Assembly: GCA_000004695.1 (NCBI GenBank)
Contig: CM000153.2
Location: 2,848,001-2,912,000 of the forward strand
Direction: 5' to 3'
Source: Dictyostelium discoideum
Taxonomy: Eukaryota
DNA length: 64,000 nucleotides
How positions within the stretch are numbered: position 1 is the first letter of the stretch; each line of letters begins with the position of its first letter. Under the pieces are notes generated by a model. The model was not told the origin of the DNA. It saw nothing but the letters and a program-made list of their open reading frames with translations, and did no database searches. Positions 8,229 through 56,520 of this stretch are shown here, piece by piece. The translations under genes and the position numbers were made by a program.

Positions 8229-11200
8229 TAAAAATGATAAAAATGAATTAAATAAAATAAAAGTTGCAATTAGAGTTAGACCATTAAATTCTCGTGAATT
8301 GGGTATAGATCAAAAAATACCATGGTCAATTTCTAAAGATACAATTAGTTTATCACAAAATCCAAATATTAATTTTACATATGGTAAATAGATTATTATT
8401 ATTATTATTTTATTTATTTCTTTTTCTTTTTTTTTTTTTTTTTTTTTTTTACTAAATTATTTATTTTTTTATATATATATATAAAAAGATTATGTATTTG
8501 GTATTGATTCAAATACAATTGATGTTTATAATGCAATTGCAAAGAGTATTGTAAATTCATCATTGAATGGTATAAATGGTACAATCTTTGCATATGGACA
8601 AACATCATCAGGTAAAACATTTAGTATGAGAGGTACAGAATCAATACCAGGTATAATTAAATTATCAATTAAAGATATATTTAAGAGCATTGAAGATTCA
8701 ATTTTGGAGAAAGATTATCTATTAAAGGTATCTTATTTAGAGATTTACAATGAGGAGATTAAAGATCTATTGAATCCAACTATTAGTAATAAAAAGAAAT
8801 TAAAAATTCATGAAGATATATATAAGGGTGTAGTAGTTGCAAATCTAAAAGAAGAGATTGTAATATCACCCGACCAGATCTTTGCATTGATGAATTTCGG
8901 TGAGGAAAGGAGACATATCGGATCCACAATGATGAATGACTCGAGTAGCAGATCGCATACAATCTTTAGAATGCAGATTCAAAGTACATGTAAACAAAAT
9001 GGTACTATTCAAATGTCGACCTTGACATTGGTGGATTTGGCTGGTAGTGAAAGAGTTTCAAGTACAGGTGCAGAGGGTGTGCGTTTAAAAGAGGGTACCC
9101 ATATCAACAAGAGTTTGATGACACTAAGCAAGGTCATCTCTAAATTGAGTGAAGAGAAGACTCAACAACATGTGCCCTATAGGGATAGTAAACTAACTAG
9201 AATTTTACAACCTTCATTGGGCGGCAATTCAAAAACCGCTATCCTATGTACAATTACACCAGCAACAACGCACCAAGAGGAATCCATCTCAACCCTACAA
9301 TTTGCAAAGAGAGCTAAACGAGTTAAAACCAATTATAAAATCAATCAAGTTGCAGATGCAAATACAATGTTAAAAAAATATGAATCTGAAATATTAGAAC
9401 TTCAAAATCAATTAGTAAAATCTGAAGAAATCAATTCCCTCTTAAGAAATACAATATCAACACAAGAGATCTCTTCAAATAATTTTAAATTAGGTATGAA
9501 AAGATTTAATGACGCAATAATTGGTGGTAGTTTAATTAATGAAAATAAAAAGAAAAAGAAAAGAAGAAATACTTTAGATCCATCATATCTTTTAAAAGAT
9601 AAAATTATAAAAAAAAAAATTAGAAAATCTGAAAATCAAAAAATTAAAAAAATAAAAAATAGTGAAAATAATATTAGTAGTAGTAGTAGTAATAGTAGTG
9701 GTGAAGAGGATGATGATGATAAAGATGATGAAAATAATTATTCAATTAATCAAGATGATAAGGATGATAGTAATTATGAAGATGATGATGATGAAGATGA
9801 AGATGATGATGAAGAAAGCGATACTGATAATGAAGATGATGAAGATAATGATGAAGATAATGATGATGATGATGATGATGATGATGAATTTAAAGATAAT
9901 TTAAATTTAATTGAACCATTAGATGATGAAACAATTAAAAAAATTAAAGATTTAGATGATAGTTTAGGAATTTCAGGTCAAGTTAAAGTTAAAAGAGAAG
10001 ATTTAGATCTAATATATGAAGAATTAGAAGAAAATAAGAAATTAATTGAAGAATATGAATCAACACTTGAATTATTAAATAATCAATTGGATGAAAAAGA
10101 AATTGAACATAAAGAATTATTAATTATAATTGATCAATGGGAACAAGAATGTACAAATAGAGAGAATCAAAATCAAGAATTACTCGAAATCGATCAACAA
10201 TCAAAACAATCAATTCAACAATTAAATGATAAACTTTTAGAGACAAAACAACAATCTAAACAATCCATTGATCAATTGAATCTTCAATTAATTGATATTG
10301 AATCTGAATCAAGTAAAAATAAGAAATCATTTGAGAATGTTTTAGGAGTCTTTGAGAAATCTTATAGATTAGCAGAGAGATTAGAAGATAAATACTTTAC
10401 AAAAGAGATTGAATCAAAGAAACAAATTGAAACATTGGCAAATTCATATCTACAATTGGAGACAACTTATCAACAACAATTGAATATTAATCAACAGTCA
10501 CAACAAAAGATTCAATCATTAAATAATGATATAGAGCAATTTAAATTGGTTTGGGTGCCATTGAAAGATCAAGTCAATGGTTACTTTCAAGAGAATCAAA
10601 TGTTTAAACAATATATAATAGAGTTGGAAGAGAAATACAATACTTTGATTGATCTTCAAAAAGAGGTTGAACAAAATTATTTAACAAACACTTTGGAACA
10701 ACAAAGAAATGATCAATATCAAATCGAAATCAATCAATTGACAACTGAATATAATAATCAAATTCAACAATTGGAGAGTACAAATCAAAAATTACAAACT
10801 CAATTATATAATCTATTGGCAAATGCAACTCAATCAACTCAAACATTGGAACAGCAATTACAAACTTCCAAACAAGAGATCGATACGCTAACAAACGAGA
10901 TTGAGCAATTGAAAAACCAATATGATATTATTAGAGTTGATAATGATAATCTTTCAAAGGAATCATTAGAGTTAAAACAAATTCTACTTTCAAAAACTCA
11001 ACAATTGGAAGAACAACTATCATTGGCACAACAACAAAAGGGTAATATTGAAATCATTCAACAATTGGAATCTATAATTGTTGATAATCAACAATCTATA
11101 GATCAATTGAAAATTGAATTTGATCAATCACAACAAGATAATCAATCCATTAAACAATCTTACAATCAATTGGAATCAACTTTAACATTGGCACAATCAG

Positions 11201-14064
11201 AGAATCAACGTTTACTCACTGAAAATAAACAATTCATCACAAGTTTAAATGAGATTAAATCACTATTCAATTCAATTCAACAACAAAAAGAAACTATTCA
11301 ATTGGAATTCAATCAACGTTTACAAAGTTGGTCTCTTGATAGTGAAAAGTATAAAGAGATCATATCGACATTGGAACAATCAAATCAGAAATCAATTGAA
11401 TCTTATGAATCTAAATCATTGGAATTCCAAGAGAAAGAGAATCAATTCGATTCTCTATTAACAAACTATAATCAATTATTTAGTAAATATAATGATCTTG
11501 CTACATCCAATGAATCAAATAGATTAGAATTTGATCAATTTAAAAAAGATTCAAATCAATCCATTCAATCACTTGAATCACTTGAAAGATCATTAAAATC
11601 TGAAAATGATAATCTTTTACAACAATCTAATCTATTGAAATCTCAATTGGAATCAATTGAAAAACAAAAACAAGATCAATTAATACCAATTCAATTGGAG
11701 TTAGAATCAAAGAAATGCGAACTATCCAAACTATCTTCTCAATTCTCTGAACAAACTAAACAAGTGACTCAACTACTCATAAGTGTAGATCAATATAAAA
11801 TTTCAACAAATAAATTAGAATCTCAAATTAGCGATCGTAATGAAGAGATTAATAATTTAAAATTAAAAGCAATTGAAATCAATGCATTAAAAGAAGAGAA
11901 TATCTCACTCAAAGATCAATTAACAAAATTGAAAAAGGCTCCAAAATCTCAAACCGATCGTGAAAAAGATATGATAAAGAAAGAATTGGAAAAACTTCGT
12001 GAGAAATTCAATGCAATCGATGCAAAACTTAAACAAGCTATTCAAGATAAACAAACCATTCAATCTGAAAAACAATCATTGGAAAGAGAAATCAAAGACC
12101 TAAAGAGATCACATACCTCTACTGAAACTGAATTAGATAAATTGAAAAAAACTCATCTTGCTGCCGATGTTAAGTCAAAAGATTTCATTGCATTAAATAA
12201 ATCGGTTGAAATATTAACAAAATCACAAGAACAACTTAAATCTACAATCATAGAACTTGAATCAGACTTGTCAAAGAAAAATATTGAATTAGAAAAGAAA
12301 CAAGAAGAACTTGTCACACTCAACCAAGATAAACTTGAAAAAGAAAAGAAAACTAATCAATTAGAATCTGATCATTCAAGTGCTACCATTAAATTAGAGA
12401 ATTATGAAAATCAAATCACTCAATTAACAAGTGAAATCATTGATTTAAAGAGTAAATTTCAAGAATTTAAATCTGAATCTGAAAGCAATATCAAACAACA
12501 AGAAATTAACCTAAAAGAATCAAATGATCTAAATCAACAATTAACTAATGATAAATTTGAATTAACCAAACAATTATCTGATTTAAAGGTTGAATTTGAT
12601 AAATCTAAACAATTATGGTCAACAAGATCATCCGAATCAAATGATACAATTAAAGAACTTCAAGAATCAATCATTTCAAAAGATAAAGAACGTCAATTAA
12701 CCTCTGAACAACTTGTAAAATTAACCGATCAAATCAATTTAAAAACATGGGAATACAATGATTTGAATTCTCAATGCCAACAACTTACAAAAACTTTACA
12801 AAATGTAAAATCCAGTAACGAACAACAAGAACAGTCCATCGTATCACTTGAATCTCAAACATCTGCCAAAATTAAATCATTGGAACTAGAGATATCACAA
12901 ATTCAAGAAAATCATCGTTTAGAAGTATTGGAATTAAATCGTTGTAAAAATCAATTATCTGAAAAACAAACTCTAATGGAACAAGATAATATACAATTGA
13001 ATGAACGTATCATTCAATTACTACATCAAAAAACTAAACATGAAAATGAAATACTCTCAATGGAATCAAATATTATAGATTTAGAGAATCAAACCAAAGA
13101 ATTGAAATCAAAAATTGAAACTGCCCAACAAGATTTTGAAATTGAAAAGAACTATCATACCGGTTTAAATGAAACCAATACTACAACCATTAAAACAATG
13201 AATGAAGAATTAACTCGTTCAAATCAAACCATTCAACAATTACTCTTTAAAATTTCAAAATTGGAACAAACTTCATTACAAACTCAACAACAACAAGAAT
13301 TACAACAAGCAACCATTTCAGCTCAACAACAAAAACAACAACAATTAGCCGACGATCAAGAGAAACAACAACTCTATCAAAAAATAAAACTAATTGAAAA
13401 AGAATTGGAATCAACAAAACAAAAGAATCTCTATATCACTGAACAATTCACTCTAAAAGAATCTGAATATCTAGATACTATCACCGATTATGTTTGTAAG
13501 GAAAAAGAATTTGAAAAATCAAAAGCTTCCCTAAAAACTAGTGCTACAAAAATTCAAGCATTAAATGATATCATTAAAAAACTTCAAGAAGAAAAACCTC
13601 AACAACAACCTGTTGTTAAAGTTTCTTCTTCTCAAGTTGTAAATCAAAATGGTCAACCAATTAAATCAATTTTAAAGAAACCAAAATTAGTTATTATACC
13701 AAGAGAACAACTACAGCAACCACCTCAATTTAAAGAACTTACTCTATCAACTTTAAATAGTAATGATAGTAATTGTGAACCTGAATCCGTTTCAGCTTCA
13801 TCTACTTTAACTTCTTTACAATCAATCTCAAAGTATATTGGTAAAAGATCTGAACAAACAACTCTTGAACATGATTTAACCTCTTCAACTTTAAATCTAC
13901 CATTACAACAACAAAACAAAAAAGTTAGATTAGTAATCACTAAAAATAACAAAACTTCAACTGATAATTTAACAACTACTTCAACCTCTTTAAAATCAAA
14001 ATCATCATCCAATGGTGAAAACAAAGAAAATCAAAATAATAATATTATTATTAAAAATAATTAA
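8191..14064 (+). CDS. kinesin heavy-chain-like protein, CENP-E/kinesin-7-like (N-terminal motor, acidic tract, about 1,400 aa of coiled coil), 2 exons: join(8191..8383,8489..14064); possibly kif4
   Basis: The motor domain motifs are present: IRVRPLN, GQTSSGKTFSM (P-loop), SSRSH (switch I) and LVDLAGSE (switch II). Exon 1 ends at a GTAAAT donor and exon 2 starts after aaaaag. The frame matches ORF 8563..14064. A long D/E tract lies at about 9660-9900. The rest is heptad-rich Q/L/E/K coiled coil. Confidence 0.85.
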
Positions 14065-40445: not shown

Positions 40446-42076
40446 TTATTTAGTAGTTAAAGGATCTATTGTTTGTGGAATCTCAATTTCAAATTTGATT
40501 GTAAGTTTATTGCCAACAACAAAACCCTCACCCAAAGTATTTATAGTTTTACATTCTGCAAATTTTTCCCATCCAATACCTTTATCGTTTTGAAAGTATG
40601 AATTTTTTTCTAAAAACAATTATTATTTTTTTTTTTTTTTTTTTTTGGTTTAGACAATATAATAAAAATTATATAAATTAAATATTACATAAATTAAATA
40701 ATATAAATTATTTAAATATTTTTTTTTTTAAAAAAAAAAACATAAAATAAAAATTAATAAAATGGATATTAATTAAACATATATATATATATATTTTTAA
40801 AAAAATAAAATAAAATAAAATAAAATTTACCTTTTTTAATTGATTTTGTTGGATCGGAATTTACAATTTCAAAAGAGAATTTAATATTAATATTTGGGGA
40901 AGCTTCATGTAAATGAAGATAAAGTGAAATGTAATCTTTATTTGCTGGAGTGAAACCATTTGGAAAACAAGACACATTATATTTTCTAGAGTTAAAGTAA
41001 AACATTGGACAAGATACTCGCTTGGTAGAGGTAACTTCATCGTTTGGGATATCGATTACTTTTTGCATCCAATTTTCAATTACCCATTGATTTGAGTATT
41101 TATTTATATTGGTTAACCTTTTCTCCAAAGTTTCATGACTACATTTCAATCGTTTGAAACATCTATCACTCTCATCCAGTAGGATACGATGTTGATCTAT
41201 AATGTTTTGAATGAAACCTATATGATTATTCTCTGATGCTAAATGATTGGCTTGATGTTTTCTTTGAAAGCTTACTTGACATCCACCCTCTTTATATTTA
41301 CATTGAATGGTCATCTCGGGACATACCTCCAAATGCTCCGATAATTCCATTCTCAACATCTCTAATTTACAATGTGTACACTTTATTTTGTATGATTGAC
41401 ATTCGCTCTCCAAATGATCCTTATTGATTTTGGCTATTGGTGTTTTACAATATTGACATGGTACTTTTAAATATTCACAAGACTTATTATGTTCCTCCAA
41501 TTGATTCTTTCTAAATCTACTATTAATTTTACATTCATCACCATTTGGACAATTTATAAATGCATATTGACAATTTTTAAAATGTGTTTCCATCTCTTCA
41601 ATTCTAATTATATCTTTACATCCATTCTCTTCATCTTTAATTATTTTACCATCTTCTTTTTCTTCTTTATATTGATATTTACAATATACCTTTAAAAAAA
41701 AATAAAAAAATAAAAATAATATAAAATAAAAATAAAATAAAAAATTAAATGTTATTATTAATTTTAATCCTTTTTTTAAAAATTATTTATTATTAAAAAT
41801 ATTATTTATTCTTACCTTTTTCTTTTTAAATTCACTTTCTAAAAATAAATTACGTGATAAAAACTCTAATTTTACTTTTGCCCTACAGATTGGACATTCT
41901 TTTTTCTTATTTTCAATCTGTTTTGTCCAACAATCTGAGCATAAACAATGGCCATGAGGACATTGATTAACTTGAATTTTATCGTGACTCTCACTAAGGA
42001 GATCTGTACACACTATGCATGAAAAACTTTCTGATAATGGTTTAACTAATAAATCACTAATTTTAAACTCTGTCAT
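40446..42076 (-). CDS. TRAF-like protein (RING finger + TRAF-type zinc fingers + MATH domain), 3 exons: complement(join(40446..40609,40831..41689,41816..42076)); 427 aa
   Basis: Exon 1 carries a C3HC4 RING (CIVCTDLL...CPHGHCLCSDCW...CPICR). Exon 2 carries repeated C-x-C...H...C TRAF zinc fingers (CPNGDEC, CEYLKVPCQYC, CQSYKIKCTHC, CPEMTIQCKYKEGGC). The MATH domain runs from VSCPMFYFNSRKYNVSCFPNG and continues across intron 2 as ...SIKK|E|KNSYFQNDKGIGWEKFAECK...KFEIEIP. Donors are GTAAGA and GTAAAT. Confidence 0.7.
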
Positions 42077-43115
42077 TTCATAATATTATTATTATTATTG
42101 TTACGTATTAAAAAAAAAAAAAAAAAAAAAAAATTTTTGATTCTATTTTGTTTCTTAAATTATTATAATTGTTAATATTATTTACAATGTTTATTTATGT
42201 TTTATTATTATTATTATCTTTATTATTTAATATCTTTTATTAATTAATTAATTAATTTTTTTTTTTTCTTTTTAATTGGTTTTTTTTTTTTTATTAAATT
42301 TTTTTTTTTTTTTTTTTCTATCTCTTTCTTTAATATTTCTATCTTATCCTTTTAAGTGTTTATTTTTTTTTTTTTTTTTATTTTTTTTTTCTTTTTTAAA
42401 AATAAAAAAATAAAAAAAATAAAAAAATTAAATGCAAAAACAATTTAAAATTTTTTTTTTTTTTTTTTCTTTTTTTTTTTTTAAAAAATTTCAAGAATTA
42501 TTGGAATTATGATCGCGCTCCCACTAAATAAAAAAATTTTAATTAAAATAAAAAATAAATTAATTATTAAATGGATATTTTTAGAAGTCGAGCTTAGGTT
42601 TCGAAGATCTTAGCACAAATTCGTTCTATTCATTTATTAATAAATTAATTTTCTTTTTTTAGGTCAAAATTTCAATATAAACACAATTTTTAAGGTGTAT
42701 TTTCATAGGATGATTCCTTAATATGAAATCAATTAATTAAAAGAATATGTAAAACCCAATTAATTTTCGATTTGATGATTTTTTAATTTTTCTTTTGATT
42801 TGGATTGGACAAAAAAAAAAAAAAAAAAAAAACTGTTTAAAATTCAATCCACTCGTTAATTAATTAATTTTCTTTTAATTAAAAAAAATTAAAAAAAAAA
42901 GACGATAAAAATAAAAATAAAAATAAAAATAAAAAAAAAAAAGAAAATATCTTCACATCAAAAAGAAAAATATCAAGCGAGTGACCTTTCGGTTTAATTT
43001 TATTTACACATGCATGAGAAGTATATTTAAATGAAATTTAATTACTAAATTTTGATTGGATATGGTTTTCATTTTTTTTTTTTTTTTCCTTTTAAAAAAA
43101 TTTAATAATTAAATT

Positions 43116-43158
<43 letters not shown>

Positions 43159-43235
43159 AAATAAAAAAAATAAGGAAGTAAATAAATAAATAAATATATA
43201 AAATAAAAATTTTTTAAAAAAAAAAAGAAAAATAA

Positions 43236-43390
43236 AAAACTAAAAATAAAAAATCTAATAATCTGTGCGACACAAGCAAAAAAAAACACCATTTCTTTTT
43301 TTTCTGACGAAAATGATCATCACAAAAGTTTTGAAATAAAAAATAAAATAATAAAAAATAATTTCCAAACCACCAGGACAAAAAAAAAAA
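43236..43390 (+). repeat. conserved non-coding element, copy A (about 150 bp), core ...aacaccatttc(t)nctgacgaaaatgatcatcacaaaag...aatttccaaaccaccaggaca
   Basis: About 75-80% identical to 46700..46872 on the same strand. The blocks aaaaatc[ta]aataat..gtg[ct]gaca, aaaaaaaacacc.ttt, tctgac[ga]aaaatgatca and caaaccaccaggaca are shared. Confidence 0.55.
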
Positions 43391-43852
43391 AAAAAAGAAA
43401 AAACCATTAAAAATTCAGTCCAACCATTAATTAATTTTAAAAAAATTAATAGACATGTTCATTTGGTGATTTTCTTAATCAAAAAAAAAAACGATAAAAA
43501 AAAAAAGACGATAAAAAAAAAAGGTAAAAATAAAAAAAAAAAAAAAAAAAAAAAAAAATTCTAAACAGCCAAAGAATTACAACATCGCCATTATTCCAAA
43601 CATTAACAAAATTGATAGGTATTAGTTGAGAAGGTTCTAATTTATCACCGGAAAGATATTGGGGTGTTTTCTTAATTTTCTATTCAACTTTTACTCAAAA
43701 AATAAATAAAAAATAAAAAAAAGTTTATATGTTTAAAAACTAAAATTTTAATAAAATAATTTTTATTATTTATTTATTATTTTTTATTCCCTCCTTTTTT
43801 TTTAAAGTATTATTTAAATTGTTATTATTATTATTATTATTATTATTTAAAT

Positions 43853-46129
43853 TTAATTATTAATAATTCTAAAATTTAAAACCTCTTTAAAGTAAATTAT
43901 AAACTTTGGTTGAAAACAAGTATAAGCTTTATCTATTAGATAATTTATATCATATATTGTTAGAATTTTTGAAGTTGGAGTTATTTCATTTAATAATATA
44001 TTTTTATGTTTTTCAGAATTTACTATATATTCAAACATTTCTAATTTACCTAACGATATTGAATAAGATAATATTCTAGTAATTACTCTTGAACAATGAC
44101 TTAATGATAATATTCTTTCAAATAATTTAAAATCCGATCTAACTGCAATTTCAAATATTAATGAATCATTTAAAATAATATCCTTATCAGCAATATGTAA
44201 ACCTTGATGATAATAATATAATAATAATGGTGCATTAATAATTTGGGATGGATCTTGAACTAGATGAGTTGTTTTTGATTTCATTCTCCTAATTTCATTA
44301 AAAAGGTATGAAATTTTCTCTATTGACCCATGTAAATAATATTTTGATTTAAAAAGTGTTACAAGGTCAGTTTCTTTTAAAAAGTCTTTAATATTATCGT
44401 TATCTAATATAAAATCTATAGTTTCATTTGAACAAATTCTAATTTGATAAAAAATATAAACATTTCCTAAATCAGCAAAATAATTAATTGGATAATTATT
44501 TTTATAATGATACAATAATTGATAATTATTATTATTATTTCTTAATTCATCATCACCATCACCATCGCCATTATCTTCTCCTTGTTCTCTTTTAGTAAAT
44601 AAACAATCGATTTTAAATTTAATAATTGGTTTTAGTTCTAAATTATTTGGTGATAATAAATAGTCAATTACTTGAGTTGATTTTGGGAATACAAATGTTT
44701 GATGTGGTAAAGTAGCATTTGAAGTTGTGGTAGAAGATCTTCTAATTTTATCTTTTAATAAATTTCCAACCATTTCAATTAAAATAATATCATTTAATGA
44801 AACTAATAAATCAAATAAATCAATCATAATTCTAAAACTAATATTGCCACCATCTAAAAAATAATCTAAATATTTTATTTGTAAATCTTTTCTTCCATTA
44901 CAATTTTCAAATAAAAATTTTCTTGCATCAAATCCAACTAAATATCTAAACCATTCATAATTTTCATTATTACCACTACCACTACTTTTAAACATTATAC
45001 AATAATATAAATAATTTCTAATAGATTGTTTTTCAACACTATATGGTATTATCATTTTAAATAATTTTGAAATTAATAATTTTATTTTTTCATTTTCATT
45101 ATTAATATTATTATTATTATTATTATTAAAATTTATATTTTTAATTATTATTGATAATGGTAAATTTAAATTTTTAAATTGTAATTTTATATTATCTAAT
45201 TCCTCAATTGATAATGGTTCATCAATTGTTTCTTTTAAAAGTGGATTAATTAAAATATCAGATGACCCAAAACTTTGATTATTTAATTGTTTTTTTTTTA
45301 ATTCCCAGTTTTCTAATGATGGTAAATTTAAAATTGAAATACTATAACATGAATTTAATAATGACTCTAATGTTGATTTGAAAAATAGTGTATTAATTTT
45401 ATAATCTATTGGTTTTAATTGATTTGGTATTGTTTTATTTGATAATTGTAAAGTTTTAAAAACTAAATATTGTAATTTTTTATCGATATCAATTGACCGA
45501 TTTTCTTTATTTATTATTGAATTCCATAAGATCTGATTATCCATTTCTGGGCAACCCAATTGATTATAAATATAGTTTGCCATTTTAAATGAATTCAATC
45601 TAACTGATGATATAAACATAGTAAGAGTTGGTTCAATTAATTTATATTCCATATAAAGTAAATCTAATGCTATATAATTATCATATGAAATTAACTTTTC
45701 AACTAATAATTTAATATTCATAAATTTAAAAAAACTTGAATAATAATTTTTAAATAAATAATAATAAAATTCTATATCATTATGTAATGAAATAATTTCA
45801 ATTGATTCCTCTTCTTCTTCATCTTCTTCTTCTTCTCTAGTTGTTTTTATTTTTTTTATTTTTTTTTTTTTTTTAATATCTGGAATTGAAAAAATTGAAA
45901 ATAAAAAATCAGATTTCTTTGGATCAAATTTAATTTCTTCATTTTTTTTTAATTCATTTTTATTTTTATTTTTATTTTTATTATTTTCACAATTTCCAAA
46001 GAATCTATTTATATCATGAGGATATTGTAGAGGAAAATATATTTCATTTGATACTGGGTAAAATGATAAATTCTCTTTACCTATTTTAACTTTATCTTTT
46101 AATAATGAATAATGTTTATTATCTATCAT
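43853..46129 (-). CDS. hypothetical protein (758 aa), lineage-specific, no recognisable domain
   Basis: A single long ORF with typical codon usage. It has an acidic tract, EEEEDEEEEE, and poly-N. Confidence 0.55.
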   Translation of the reverse strand: MIDNKHYSLLKDKVKIGKENLSFYPVSNEIYFPLQYPHDINRFFGNCENNKNKNKNKNELKKNEEIKFDPKKSDFLFSIFSIPDIKKKKKIKKIKTTREEEEDEEEEESIEIISLHNDIEFYYYLFKNYYSSFFKFMNIKLLVEKLISYDNYIALDLLYMEYKLIEPTLTMFISSVRLNSFKMANYIYNQLGCPEMDNQILWNSIINKENRSIDIDKKLQYLVFKTLQLSNKTIPNQLKPIDYKINTLFFKSTLESLLNSCYSISILNLPSLENWELKKKQLNNQSFGSSDILINPLLKETIDEPLSIEELDNIKLQFKNLNLPLSIIIKNINFNNNNNNNINNENEKIKLLISKLFKMIIPYSVEKQSIRNYLYYCIMFKSSGSGNNENYEWFRYLVGFDARKFLFENCNGRKDLQIKYLDYFLDGGNISFRIMIDLFDLLVSLNDIILIEMVGNLLKDKIRRSSTTTSNATLPHQTFVFPKSTQVIDYLLSPNNLELKPIIKFKIDCLFTKREQGEDNGDGDGDDELRNNNNNYQLLYHYKNNYPINYFADLGNVYIFYQIRICSNETIDFILDNDNIKDFLKETDLVTLFKSKYYLHGSIEKISYLFNEIRRMKSKTTHLVQDPSQIINAPLLLYYYHQGLHIADKDIILNDSLIFEIAVRSDFKLFERILSLSHCSRVITRILSYSISLGKLEMFEYIVNSEKHKNILLNEITPTSKILTIYDINYLIDKAYTCFQPKFIIYFKEVLNFRIINN

Positions 46130-46699
46130 CCATTGAACACTAGTTATTTCGTCATATTTAAATTTTCCCTATTTTAAATAATAATTTTTTTTTTTTTTTT
46201 TTTTTTTTATTATCATTAGTGTGTTGTAAATTATTTTTTTTAATTACTATTTAAAACAACTAATTAAAAGATTTAATAAATACCCCCATAAAAGATGAGG
46301 TTGAAATAAATGAAAAAATTAAAGATGAAATATATTTATTATTAAAAACTTTAAAAAATAATTGTTTTTCCATTTTAACAAAAATCTAAAAAAAAAAAAA
46401 ACCTATAATGATTTAAAAAAAAAATAAAAAAAAAATAAAAAAAAAAAATTCTTTTTTATTTCTAAAAAATTTTTTTTTTTTTTTTTTTTTTTTTATGATT
46501 GGTAACCTTGTTTTCTAGGTTGGAAAAACAATTGGTTTTAGCGTGTCATTTCAAAATATGCATTACCACGTTTTATAAAAATTTTCTAGTCACCAATAAA
46601 AAATTCCTATTACATTTTGAAAAAACACGATAAAACCAATTGTTTTCTCAAACTAGAAAACTTGTTGTTGTTCATCTAATTTGAAAAAAAAAAAAAAAT

Positions 46700-46872
46700 A
46701 AAACTAAAAATAAAACTAAAATAAAAAATCAAATAATTGGTGTGACATGAACACTAACAAAAAAAACACCGTTTTCTGACAAAAATGATCACAAAAATAA
46801 AAAATAAAAAAAAATAAAAAAAATTTTTTTTTTTTTAAAAAATAATTTTCAAACCACCAGGACATACACAAC
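46700..46872 (+). repeat. conserved non-coding element, copy B; it ends about 90 bp upstream of the ATG of the 46960 gene
   Basis: See copy A: ...aacaccgttttctgacaaaaatgatcacaaaaat...aattttcaaaccaccaggaca. Confidence 0.55.
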
Positions 46873-46959
46873 ACCAACTTTTCATAAAAAAAAAAAAAAA
46901 AAAATATCACAATAAAATATAAATAAATAAATAAATATTTAAACGTTTCATCTCTATAG

Positions 46960-47072
46960 AATGAAATTCAGAGAGAAAATAATATGCATTTGTTTAGTTA
47001 TTTTTTCATTATTAACATTAATTGCAACAATCATTATAGTGGTATTTGATTTATTACCTAGTGTAAGTATAG

Positions 47073-47114
<42 letters not shown>

Positions 47115-55902: not shown

Positions 55903-56279
55903 ATTGTTTTATTTTTTATTTTTTTATTTCAAATGAAATAGTGATATTAATTTTTAAAAAACCATAAATAGAAATTAAATAAGAATAAATTTTTTAAAAA
56001 AAAAAAATAATAAAATAAAAAAACCACACAAAAGTGTTTAATTAATGAAATGAAAGTAAAATGTTAAAAAAAATGAATAAATAAAAAAAAAAAAAAATAA
56101 AAAAGGGGTTTGTCAAAGGTCGAAAACTATCATTCAATTAAAAACTTATTTTTATTTTCATCTTTTTTTTTTTTTTATTTTTTTTTTATTTTTTTTTTTT
56201 TTTTTTTTTCGTTCGTTTTTTCATTTTTAATCCCATAATTTATATATTATTAATGGTTAAAATAAAAGAAATGTTTTAT

Positions 56280-56520
56280 TGAAATTTAAAAGTTATGACC
56301 AAACTCTTAGGATCATTTCTAGAGTATCGTCTATTAAAATTATTCATCAATAATTTTTCCTCTTTCACAGCTAGGATGATGATATACACTCACTACACGA
56401 AAGCGTGAAACCGTTATTATCGAATGATTCATTTATTCTTTATTAACATTGATGACCGTCTAATTCAGGGATGAATTGGTTGTGTGGTGGGATTCGTACT
56501 GGCTCTTTTTTAATTTAATT
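56280..56520 (+). ncRNA. candidate non-coding RNA / structured element (speculative)
   Basis: It is a 240-bp island of unusually balanced base composition in intergenic DNA, with no credible ORF on either strand. It contains AUGAUGA (a C-box-like motif) and ends ...ggctcttttttaa (a T-run). I did not confirm a D box. This is weak. Confidence 0.2.

Follow-up and report, generated by a model that had tools for sequence, protein, structure and literature searches.

Genes and duplicated segments at the locus

The stretch of Dictyostelium discoideum DNA analysed here (the window: 64,000 nucleotides of contig CM000153.2, positions 2,848,001 to 2,912,000 of the forward strand) is strongly A/T-rich, with a GC fraction of 0.12–0.40 per kb. 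The subject of this work is a non-coding element, termed E, which occurs twice in the window, once on each side of the gene DDB_G0285155. To the left lies the first exon of a TRAF-like gene encoding a RING finger (41783–42076, minus strand), and to the right begins a membrane-protein gene (exon 1 at 46961–47062, plus strand, with its ATG at 46961), whose putative promoter contains copy B of the element. DDB_G0285155 itself is on the minus strand and consists of exon 1 (46284–46373) and exon 2 (43853–46168). Its spliced product was 100% identical to D. discoideum AX4 DDB_G0285155 in a homology search. The initial annotation had described a 758-aa orphan gene; this open reading frame (ORF) alone gave no exact-sequence match, the true product having an extra exon, and the gene model thereby becomes one of two exons and 801 aa. 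Exon 1 encodes MEKQLFFKVFNNKYI..., an N-terminal motif that recurs in distant members of the family from D. firmibasis and D. dimigraforme, and, when it is included, the gene starts approximately 340 bp from copy B. No Pfam domain was detected in the product, and a literature search on DDB_G0285155 returned no match.

Generic repeat finding and unmasked blastn were swamped by poly-A/T and AAT repeats, and exact words containing G or C, together with low-complexity-filtered blastn, were used instead. Both ways confirmed that two copies of the element in direct orientation bracket the gene: copy A (E_A, 43236–43380), the duplicate on the TRAF-gene side, and copy B (E_B, 46712–46864), which occupies the ancestral position directly upstream of the membrane-protein gene according to the outgroup alignments. 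Both lie on the plus strand and have three collinear blocks in common. The exact 15-mer CAAACCACCAGGACA is found at 43366 and 46850, the sole two matches in 64 kb even with up to three mismatches (0.44 expected); AAAATCWAATAATNNGTGYGACA is found at 43250 and 46725, with two matches in 0 of 100 shuffles, and TTCTGACRAAAATGATCA at 43302 and 46774. Overall, the exact G/C-containing words common to both intergenic regions are collinear, the long ones all being in direct orientation. Filtered blastn aligned 43236–43359 with 46712–46824 (75%, E=5e-8) and 43352–43380 with 46836–46864 (97%). The homology stops at ...CCAGGACA (43380 and 46864), short of the ends at 43390 and 46872 that were drawn initially; the distances derived from those ends hold, copy A ending 463 bp past the stop codon of DDB_G0285155 and copy B 89 bp before the ATG at 46961. 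No further copy of E was found in the window or in the 11 loci fetched from other genomes.

The length of about 150 bp given initially fits the two copies of E, but the duplicated DNA exceeds it, as a second segment, X, is doubled too. Its first copy (X1, 42815–42935, plus strand) carries a deletion of ~45 bp that is found in each of the four D. discoideum complex genomes. The second (X2, 43381–43552, plus strand) adjoins copy A and keeps the ancestral tagaca...tttggtgattttctt, which was lost from X1; the junction between E_A and X2 falls in a poly-A run directly after CCAGGACA, copy A having no poly-T tract before this end. In D. citrinum, where the element starts at about 9395, a single X precedes it by ~290 bp (8962–9108), and this X also matches window positions 43392–43551. 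Between X1 and E_A lies the single-copy ancestral segment Y (42936–43235, plus strand), with the cores GACCTTTCGG and TATTTAAATGAAATTTA present once each in every genome where they were found. A composition-aware Smith-Waterman search for a second copy of Y on either side of the inserted gene returned only poly-A matches. The second unit lacks the complex part of Y and has in its place ~3.15 kb of inserted DNA with the gene (43553–46711, the gene on the minus strand), at whose ends neither inverted nor direct repeats were seen besides E and X, nor transposon ends at the borders. The order X1-Y-E_A-X2 is characteristic of a tandem duplication in which the repeated unit was X-Y-E, ~566 bp long (42815–43380).

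The deletion in X1 has its own peculiarity. Its left border reads GGAC(A)n, as opposed to GGATGAT(A)n in the outgroups (D. citrinum 8962–9108, D. dimigraforme 9283–9444, D. firmibasis 13340–13513), and it matches the GGAC(A)n of the junction between copy A and X2. This border may be a trace of gene conversion across that junction.

The orthologous site and a relic of the gene in related genomes

The orthologous locus was taken from seven other genomes with DDB_G0285155, the membrane protein and derlin as anchors. The D. discoideum complex is represented by AX4, the divergent D. discoideum strain L005, and the two D. cf. discoideum genomes L001 and L008, with L002 as a second D. discoideum assembly; the outgroups at the site are D. 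citrinum (L003), D. dimigraforme (L004) and D. firmibasis (L006). L001, L005 and L008 have the gene and both copies of E at the AX4 positions, and in L002 the product is identical to that of AX4 and the same blocks are present. In all three outgroups, by comparison, the TRAF-like and membrane-protein genes are direct divergent neighbours, 1.7–2.0 kb apart by gene calls. There is no intervening gene between them, tblastn gave no trace of DDB_G0285155 at the site, and the ~3.15 kb insert has no counterpart; E and X are each present in one copy. The D. citrinum region is collinear with window positions 42012–43273, from the TRAF-like gene into copy A, and then with 46674–47086, from copy B into the membrane-protein gene. 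Because of this alignment, the single outgroup copy of E is seen to combine the left flank of copy A with the right flank of copy B.

A neighbour-joining tree of the adjacent gene STT3 (2162 gap-free columns) was rooted with D. purpureum, which was used only as the root since its synteny at the site is broken. The branching was (D. firmibasis,(D. dimigraforme,(D. citrinum,(L008,(L001,(L002,L005)))))), and the D. discoideum complex formed a clade with 100% bootstrap, leaving the three outgroups outside it. The tree and the pattern of presence and absence therefore call for one gain in the stem of the complex.

Several local peculiarities were encountered in these genomes. In D. firmibasis, ~370 bp of extra sequence (12600–12940) separate blocks 1 and 2 from block 3 of the single element. 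In D. citrinum, a long (ATCAAT)n microsatellite (9830–9960) fills the first intron of the membrane-protein gene, and the annotated model of this gene begins at exon 2, omitting a conserved exon 1 with an ATG near 9686. In D. purpureum (GL871013.1), the STT3 and derlin synteny is kept and broken immediately past derlin, and a glycosyl hydrolase 9 gene stands where the membrane-protein and TRAF-like genes would be. Within the inserted DNA, a repeat search found an inverted repeat upstream of DDB_G0285155 (46510–46661, with arms at 46510–46540 and 46631–46661). The segment of ~90 bp between the arms is in reversed orientation in L008 (about 12270–12310), which suggests an inversion mediated by the repeat.

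As for the gene itself, it is not a true orphan. Distant relatives were found by an exhaustive HMMER search in D. discoideum (DDB_G0290323), D. firmibasis and D. purpureum, and, judged by sequence, DDB_G0285155 belongs to a small Dictyostelium-specific family. The best match outside the complex in the HMMER search was a 159-aa protein of D. citrinum. Its locus (L009, about 9880–11008, JBTAPK010000050.1) lies on the same contig as the TRAF/membrane locus, ~230 kb away, between a purple acid phosphatase gene and a gene for a 498-aa product, with linker-histone and Hus1 genes nearby. It is an internally deleted remnant, colinear with DDB_G0285155: the window segments 46201–46133, 45819–45711, 45614–45339, 44633–44598, 44533–44456 and 44212–43697 match it with 74–84% DNA identity, and the last of these matches covers 156 bp past the stop codon. 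In L001, the identity across the gene region is ~85% at the DNA level and 80% at the protein level, and the STT3 distance is 0.02, compared to 0.066 for D. citrinum. From these values, the divergence of the remnant is about what the distance between D. discoideum and D. citrinum predicts for a fast-evolving gene, and L009 is probably the donor locus of DDB_G0285155. The family members in D. firmibasis and D. dimigraforme (L010 and L011) were also considered as the donor site and rejected, being distant paralogues at unrelated loci.

These protein searches have a defined scope. The HMMER search collapsed relatives above 50% identity, and the word-indexed search scored 8000 candidates. Two of the four orthologues present in NCBI assemblies were among the matches listed by the latter; the 807-aa product of L005 and the 822-aa product of L008 were missed, probably because the 8000 places were taken up by low-complexity words, and absence in the word-indexed search is therefore weak evidence for this protein.

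Direction of the change and role of the two copies

An important question is whether the arrangement with two copies and a gene was gained in the complex or lost outside it. Of the 84 block positions aligned, 8 distinguish copy A from copy B, and each copy differs from the D. citrinum element at 25–31 of 81–85. Sites where A and B agree against D. citrinum number 22, with 2 and 5 for the alternative patterns, although this count is inflated by the imperfect MAFFT alignment of the D. citrinum sequence. In a cleaner alignment restricted to block 3, A and B have in common an insertion of 5 nt (CAAAC) and the AATAATTT form, neither of which is present in the three outgroups; only copy B of L001 has secondarily lost the CAAAC insertion. 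A local segmental duplication is expected to leave nearby paralogous blocks that are collinear and in the same orientation, a single outgroup copy joining the opposite flanks, and paralogues that are closest to each other and have derived states in common. The first of these is seen at the locus, the second in L003, L004 and L006, and the third in the block alignments, where gene conversion is a possible cause as well. With a probability of about 0.75, copies A and B are paralogues left behind by a local duplication, which was linked to the entry of DDB_G0285155 into this site on the branch leading to the D. discoideum complex. The fallback reading of the initial annotation, a local segmental duplication remnant, is thus supported by the outgroup loci and tied to the arrival of the gene, and the feature is of an ordinary, known type with a datable evolutionary history.

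Apart from the inflated site count, several points weigh against this interpretation. In the alignment read by eye, block 1 of copy B is nearer to D. citrinum than that of copy A, and the duplication could look young through gene conversion between the copies. A low-copy dispersed family of E is excluded only across the ~290 kb covered from eight genomes. Three of the four complex genomes keep copy A about as well as copy B, and relaxed constraint on copy A is seen in L008 alone. Finally, a closer paralogue might exist at the donor site in D. discoideum, so that a moved gene and a copied gene both fit.

Loss rather than gain would mean that two copies and a gene were ancestral, and that each of the three outgroups lost the gene by recombination between A and B, leaving one chimeric copy. 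Deletion between direct repeats predicts exactly the structure of the outgroups, namely the left flank of A, a single copy and the right flank of B, and the D. citrinum copy indeed looks mixed, being B-like in block 1 and A-like in block 2. However, a mosaic of this kind would also be expected after a young duplication, provided that the two copies went on to lose different ancestral states. On the STT3 tree, the loss would require two or three independent and near-identical deletions against one gain. It is further opposed by the derived states common to A and B and missing in the three outgroups, by the far greater closeness of A to B than of either to D. citrinum, and by the relic of the gene which D. 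citrinum holds elsewhere, at an orthologue-like divergence of about 75%. We consider ancestral presence of the gene unlikely.

A duplication that was gained leaves the function of each copy to be considered. The initial annotation had regarded the conservation of the blocks as unusual for intergenic DNA. Between AX4 and L001, the blocks diverge by about 9–10% (8 differences at 83 positions in copy A, 7 at 78 in copy B), compared to 4–7% mismatches for the region overall within the complex. By these alignments, the blocks diverge no less than their surroundings, and their conservation is not unusual. They stand out because the neighbouring A/T runs change fast by slippage; in DNA of ~85% A/T, any recent duplicate of complex sequence looks like "conserved blocks with variable spacers".

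A conserved position upstream of an orthologous start codon was found for copy B only. From the end of CCAGGACA to the ATG of the membrane-protein gene there are 96, 99, 95, 112, 138 and 101 nt in six genomes, and 339 nt in D. firmibasis, where the extra sequence before block 3 increases the distance. Inside copy B, a poly-T tract of 13 nt (46824–46836, plus strand) stands directly upstream of block 3 (AATAATTTTCAAACCACCAGGACA). The tract is present in the B copies and in D. citrinum and D. dimigraforme; copy A is without it in the three genomes where its block 3 is alignable. In genome-wide mapping, sense-strand poly-T tracts of Dictyostelium end about 2 bp before the transcription start sites (Chang et al., 2012, PMC3371697). 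By this rule, the start of the membrane-protein gene is predicted ~2 nt past the tract, at about 46838–46839, and block 3 would begin the 5′ untranslated region (5′ UTR). We infer that copy B is the ancestral core promoter together with the first ~25 nt of this 5′ UTR. The succession of a 13-nt poly-T tract, the best-conserved block and an A-rich leader to the ATG resembles a Dictyostelium core promoter, whereas copy B differs from it in having no canonical TATAAA(A/T)(A/T) about 29 bp upstream of a start site that is itself predicted from sequence.

Copy A is most likely an inert by-product of the rearrangement, as its state in L008 suggests, where block 1 is gone and the core of block 3 is mutated to CCAGGGC. 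The initial annotation had proposed a shared cis-regulatory module, and both copies might indeed be under selection, for instance if the TRAF-like and membrane-protein genes kept a split bidirectional control. The ancestral region sat between divergent genes, copy A retains all three blocks in three of the four complex genomes, and the CCAGGACA core is conserved as far as D. firmibasis. Against joint selection, the 9–10% block divergence within the complex is no slower than that of the region, and copy A has neither the poly-T tract nor, in L008, intact blocks. Moreover, the CTGA...TGATCA core is missing in D. dimigraforme and changed in L008, there even in copy B, and outside the two copies the 64 kb contain no further CCAGGACA, which is thus no general motif. 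Selection on both copies is therefore improbable. Of the module proposal, the promoter position of copy B, conserved in seven genomes, stands; copy A would be a by-product and not an independently recruited part.

Far less probable still is that each copy is or contains a gene for a small non-coding RNA (ncRNA), either a box C/D-like small nucleolar RNA (snoRNA) or another Dictyostelium ncRNA. In the element, CUGA stands 5 nt before AUGAUCA, loosely like the D′/C′ boxes of a box C/D snoRNA, and a genuine snoRNA gene, that of U3, lies 10 kb away. Unlike such an RNA, the element has no terminal C/D boxes, Rfam match, upstream element or terminal stem, and close relatives do not conserve its boxes, L008 and D. 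dimigraforme both lacking an intact CTGA/TGATCA core. A search of both strands up to 150 nt from each copy found no RUGAUGA...CUGA pair, in agreement with the initial annotation, which had found no flanking C/D boxes, and the sole GUGAUGA, on the minus strand of copy A, reads GUGAUCA in copy B. Rfam gave nothing in 42000–47100 even at E<=5 and, at gathering thresholds, only U3 in the whole window; a tRNA search of the window found none. The Dictyostelium upstream sequence element (DUSE) lies about 60 nt upstream of many ncRNA genes of this genus (PMC7919456). Its consensus [AT]CCCA[CT]AA is matched at just three places in the window, all of them away from the copies. The U3 gene (56295–56503, plus strand; RF00012, 89 bits) has the DUSE TCCCATAA at 56231–56238, 57–64 nt upstream, and together they serve as an internal positive control for the architecture of Dictyostelium ncRNA genes. 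A structured RNA is not indicated either, as RNAalifold predicted 0 pairs on 10 sequences and single-sequence folding gave z-scores between −0.1 and −1.5 (−0.12, −1.49, −0.12 and −0.38).

Coding capacity was also considered. The minus-strand ORFs of 50 and 49 aa in copies A and B are in different frames, and none is present in L001, L008, D. citrinum or D. dimigraforme. The minus-strand peptides of the two copies looked alike at first (MSWWF.NYF..., FCD.HF.QK) and were rejected as a coding candidate: copy A has no ATG in that frame, the block spacings differ by 8 nt, T-rich strands contain few stop codons in any case, and the relatives have retained no ORF.

Least probable of all is a mobile origin, either as a miniature inverted-repeat transposable element or short interspersed element, as proposed initially, or as the long terminal repeats (LTRs) of a gene-carrying element: two direct repeats do flank an ORF without known domains, but there are no terminal inverted repeats, no A/B-box with a tail, no target-site duplications at the element ends, no repeats at the insert ends except E and X, no reverse transcriptase, integrase or transposase domain in the gene by domain scan, no gag/pol and no extra copies in the window or fetched loci, and the "repeat" is single-copy ancestral sequence in the conserved flanks of three outgroup species, so that the would-be LTR is present once at empty sites.

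Possible history of the rearrangement

Under a local duplication tied to the insertion, the ancestral intergenic order would have been X-Y-E followed by the membrane-protein gene, between this gene and the divergent TRAF-like gene. Once the lineage of the complex had separated from that of D. citrinum, but before the complex itself diversified, a rearrangement would have produced X1-Y-E_A, then X2, the ~3.15 kb with DDB_G0285155, E_B and the membrane-protein gene, with the imported gene replacing Y in the second unit. Two routes might lead there. In the first, a tandem duplication of X-Y-E would have been followed by the insertion with loss of the second Y; in the second, one replicative event with three template switches would have sufficed. 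Both routes fit the facts.

Fork stalling and template switching/microhomology-mediated break-induced replication (FoSTeS/MMBIR) denotes complex rearrangements by replication template switching, which combine duplication with the insertion of foreign DNA. The present locus resembles them in two respects: local segments are permuted (E, then X) beside DNA that would come from a distant locus of the same chromosome, and the junctions fall within homopolymer runs that offer only a few bases of microhomology. Unlike clear cases of FoSTeS/MMBIR, the event is old, being common to four diverged genomes, its junctions are not readable to the nucleotide, and two simple successive events would look alike.

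A bolder version, which we regard as unlikely, is that a single template-switch event with junctions in poly-A runs copied the whole gene from ~230 kb away into a bidirectional promoter, duplicating pieces of this promoter, and that the stranded copy A still fires on the plus strand, its transcript running antisense across the 3′ end of DDB_G0285155. If true, this would be a datable gene relocation that created new regulatory wiring within the D. discoideum species complex.

Overall, the striking similarity of the two non-coding copies would be explained by history and not by function. The arrival of the lineage-specific DDB_G0285155 can be placed on the branch that leads to the D. discoideum complex, later than the separation from D. 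citrinum. If copy B is indeed the ancestral promoter and copy A its inert duplicate, the locus offers a natural experiment in which the same promoter exists twice, once still serving its gene and once stranded.

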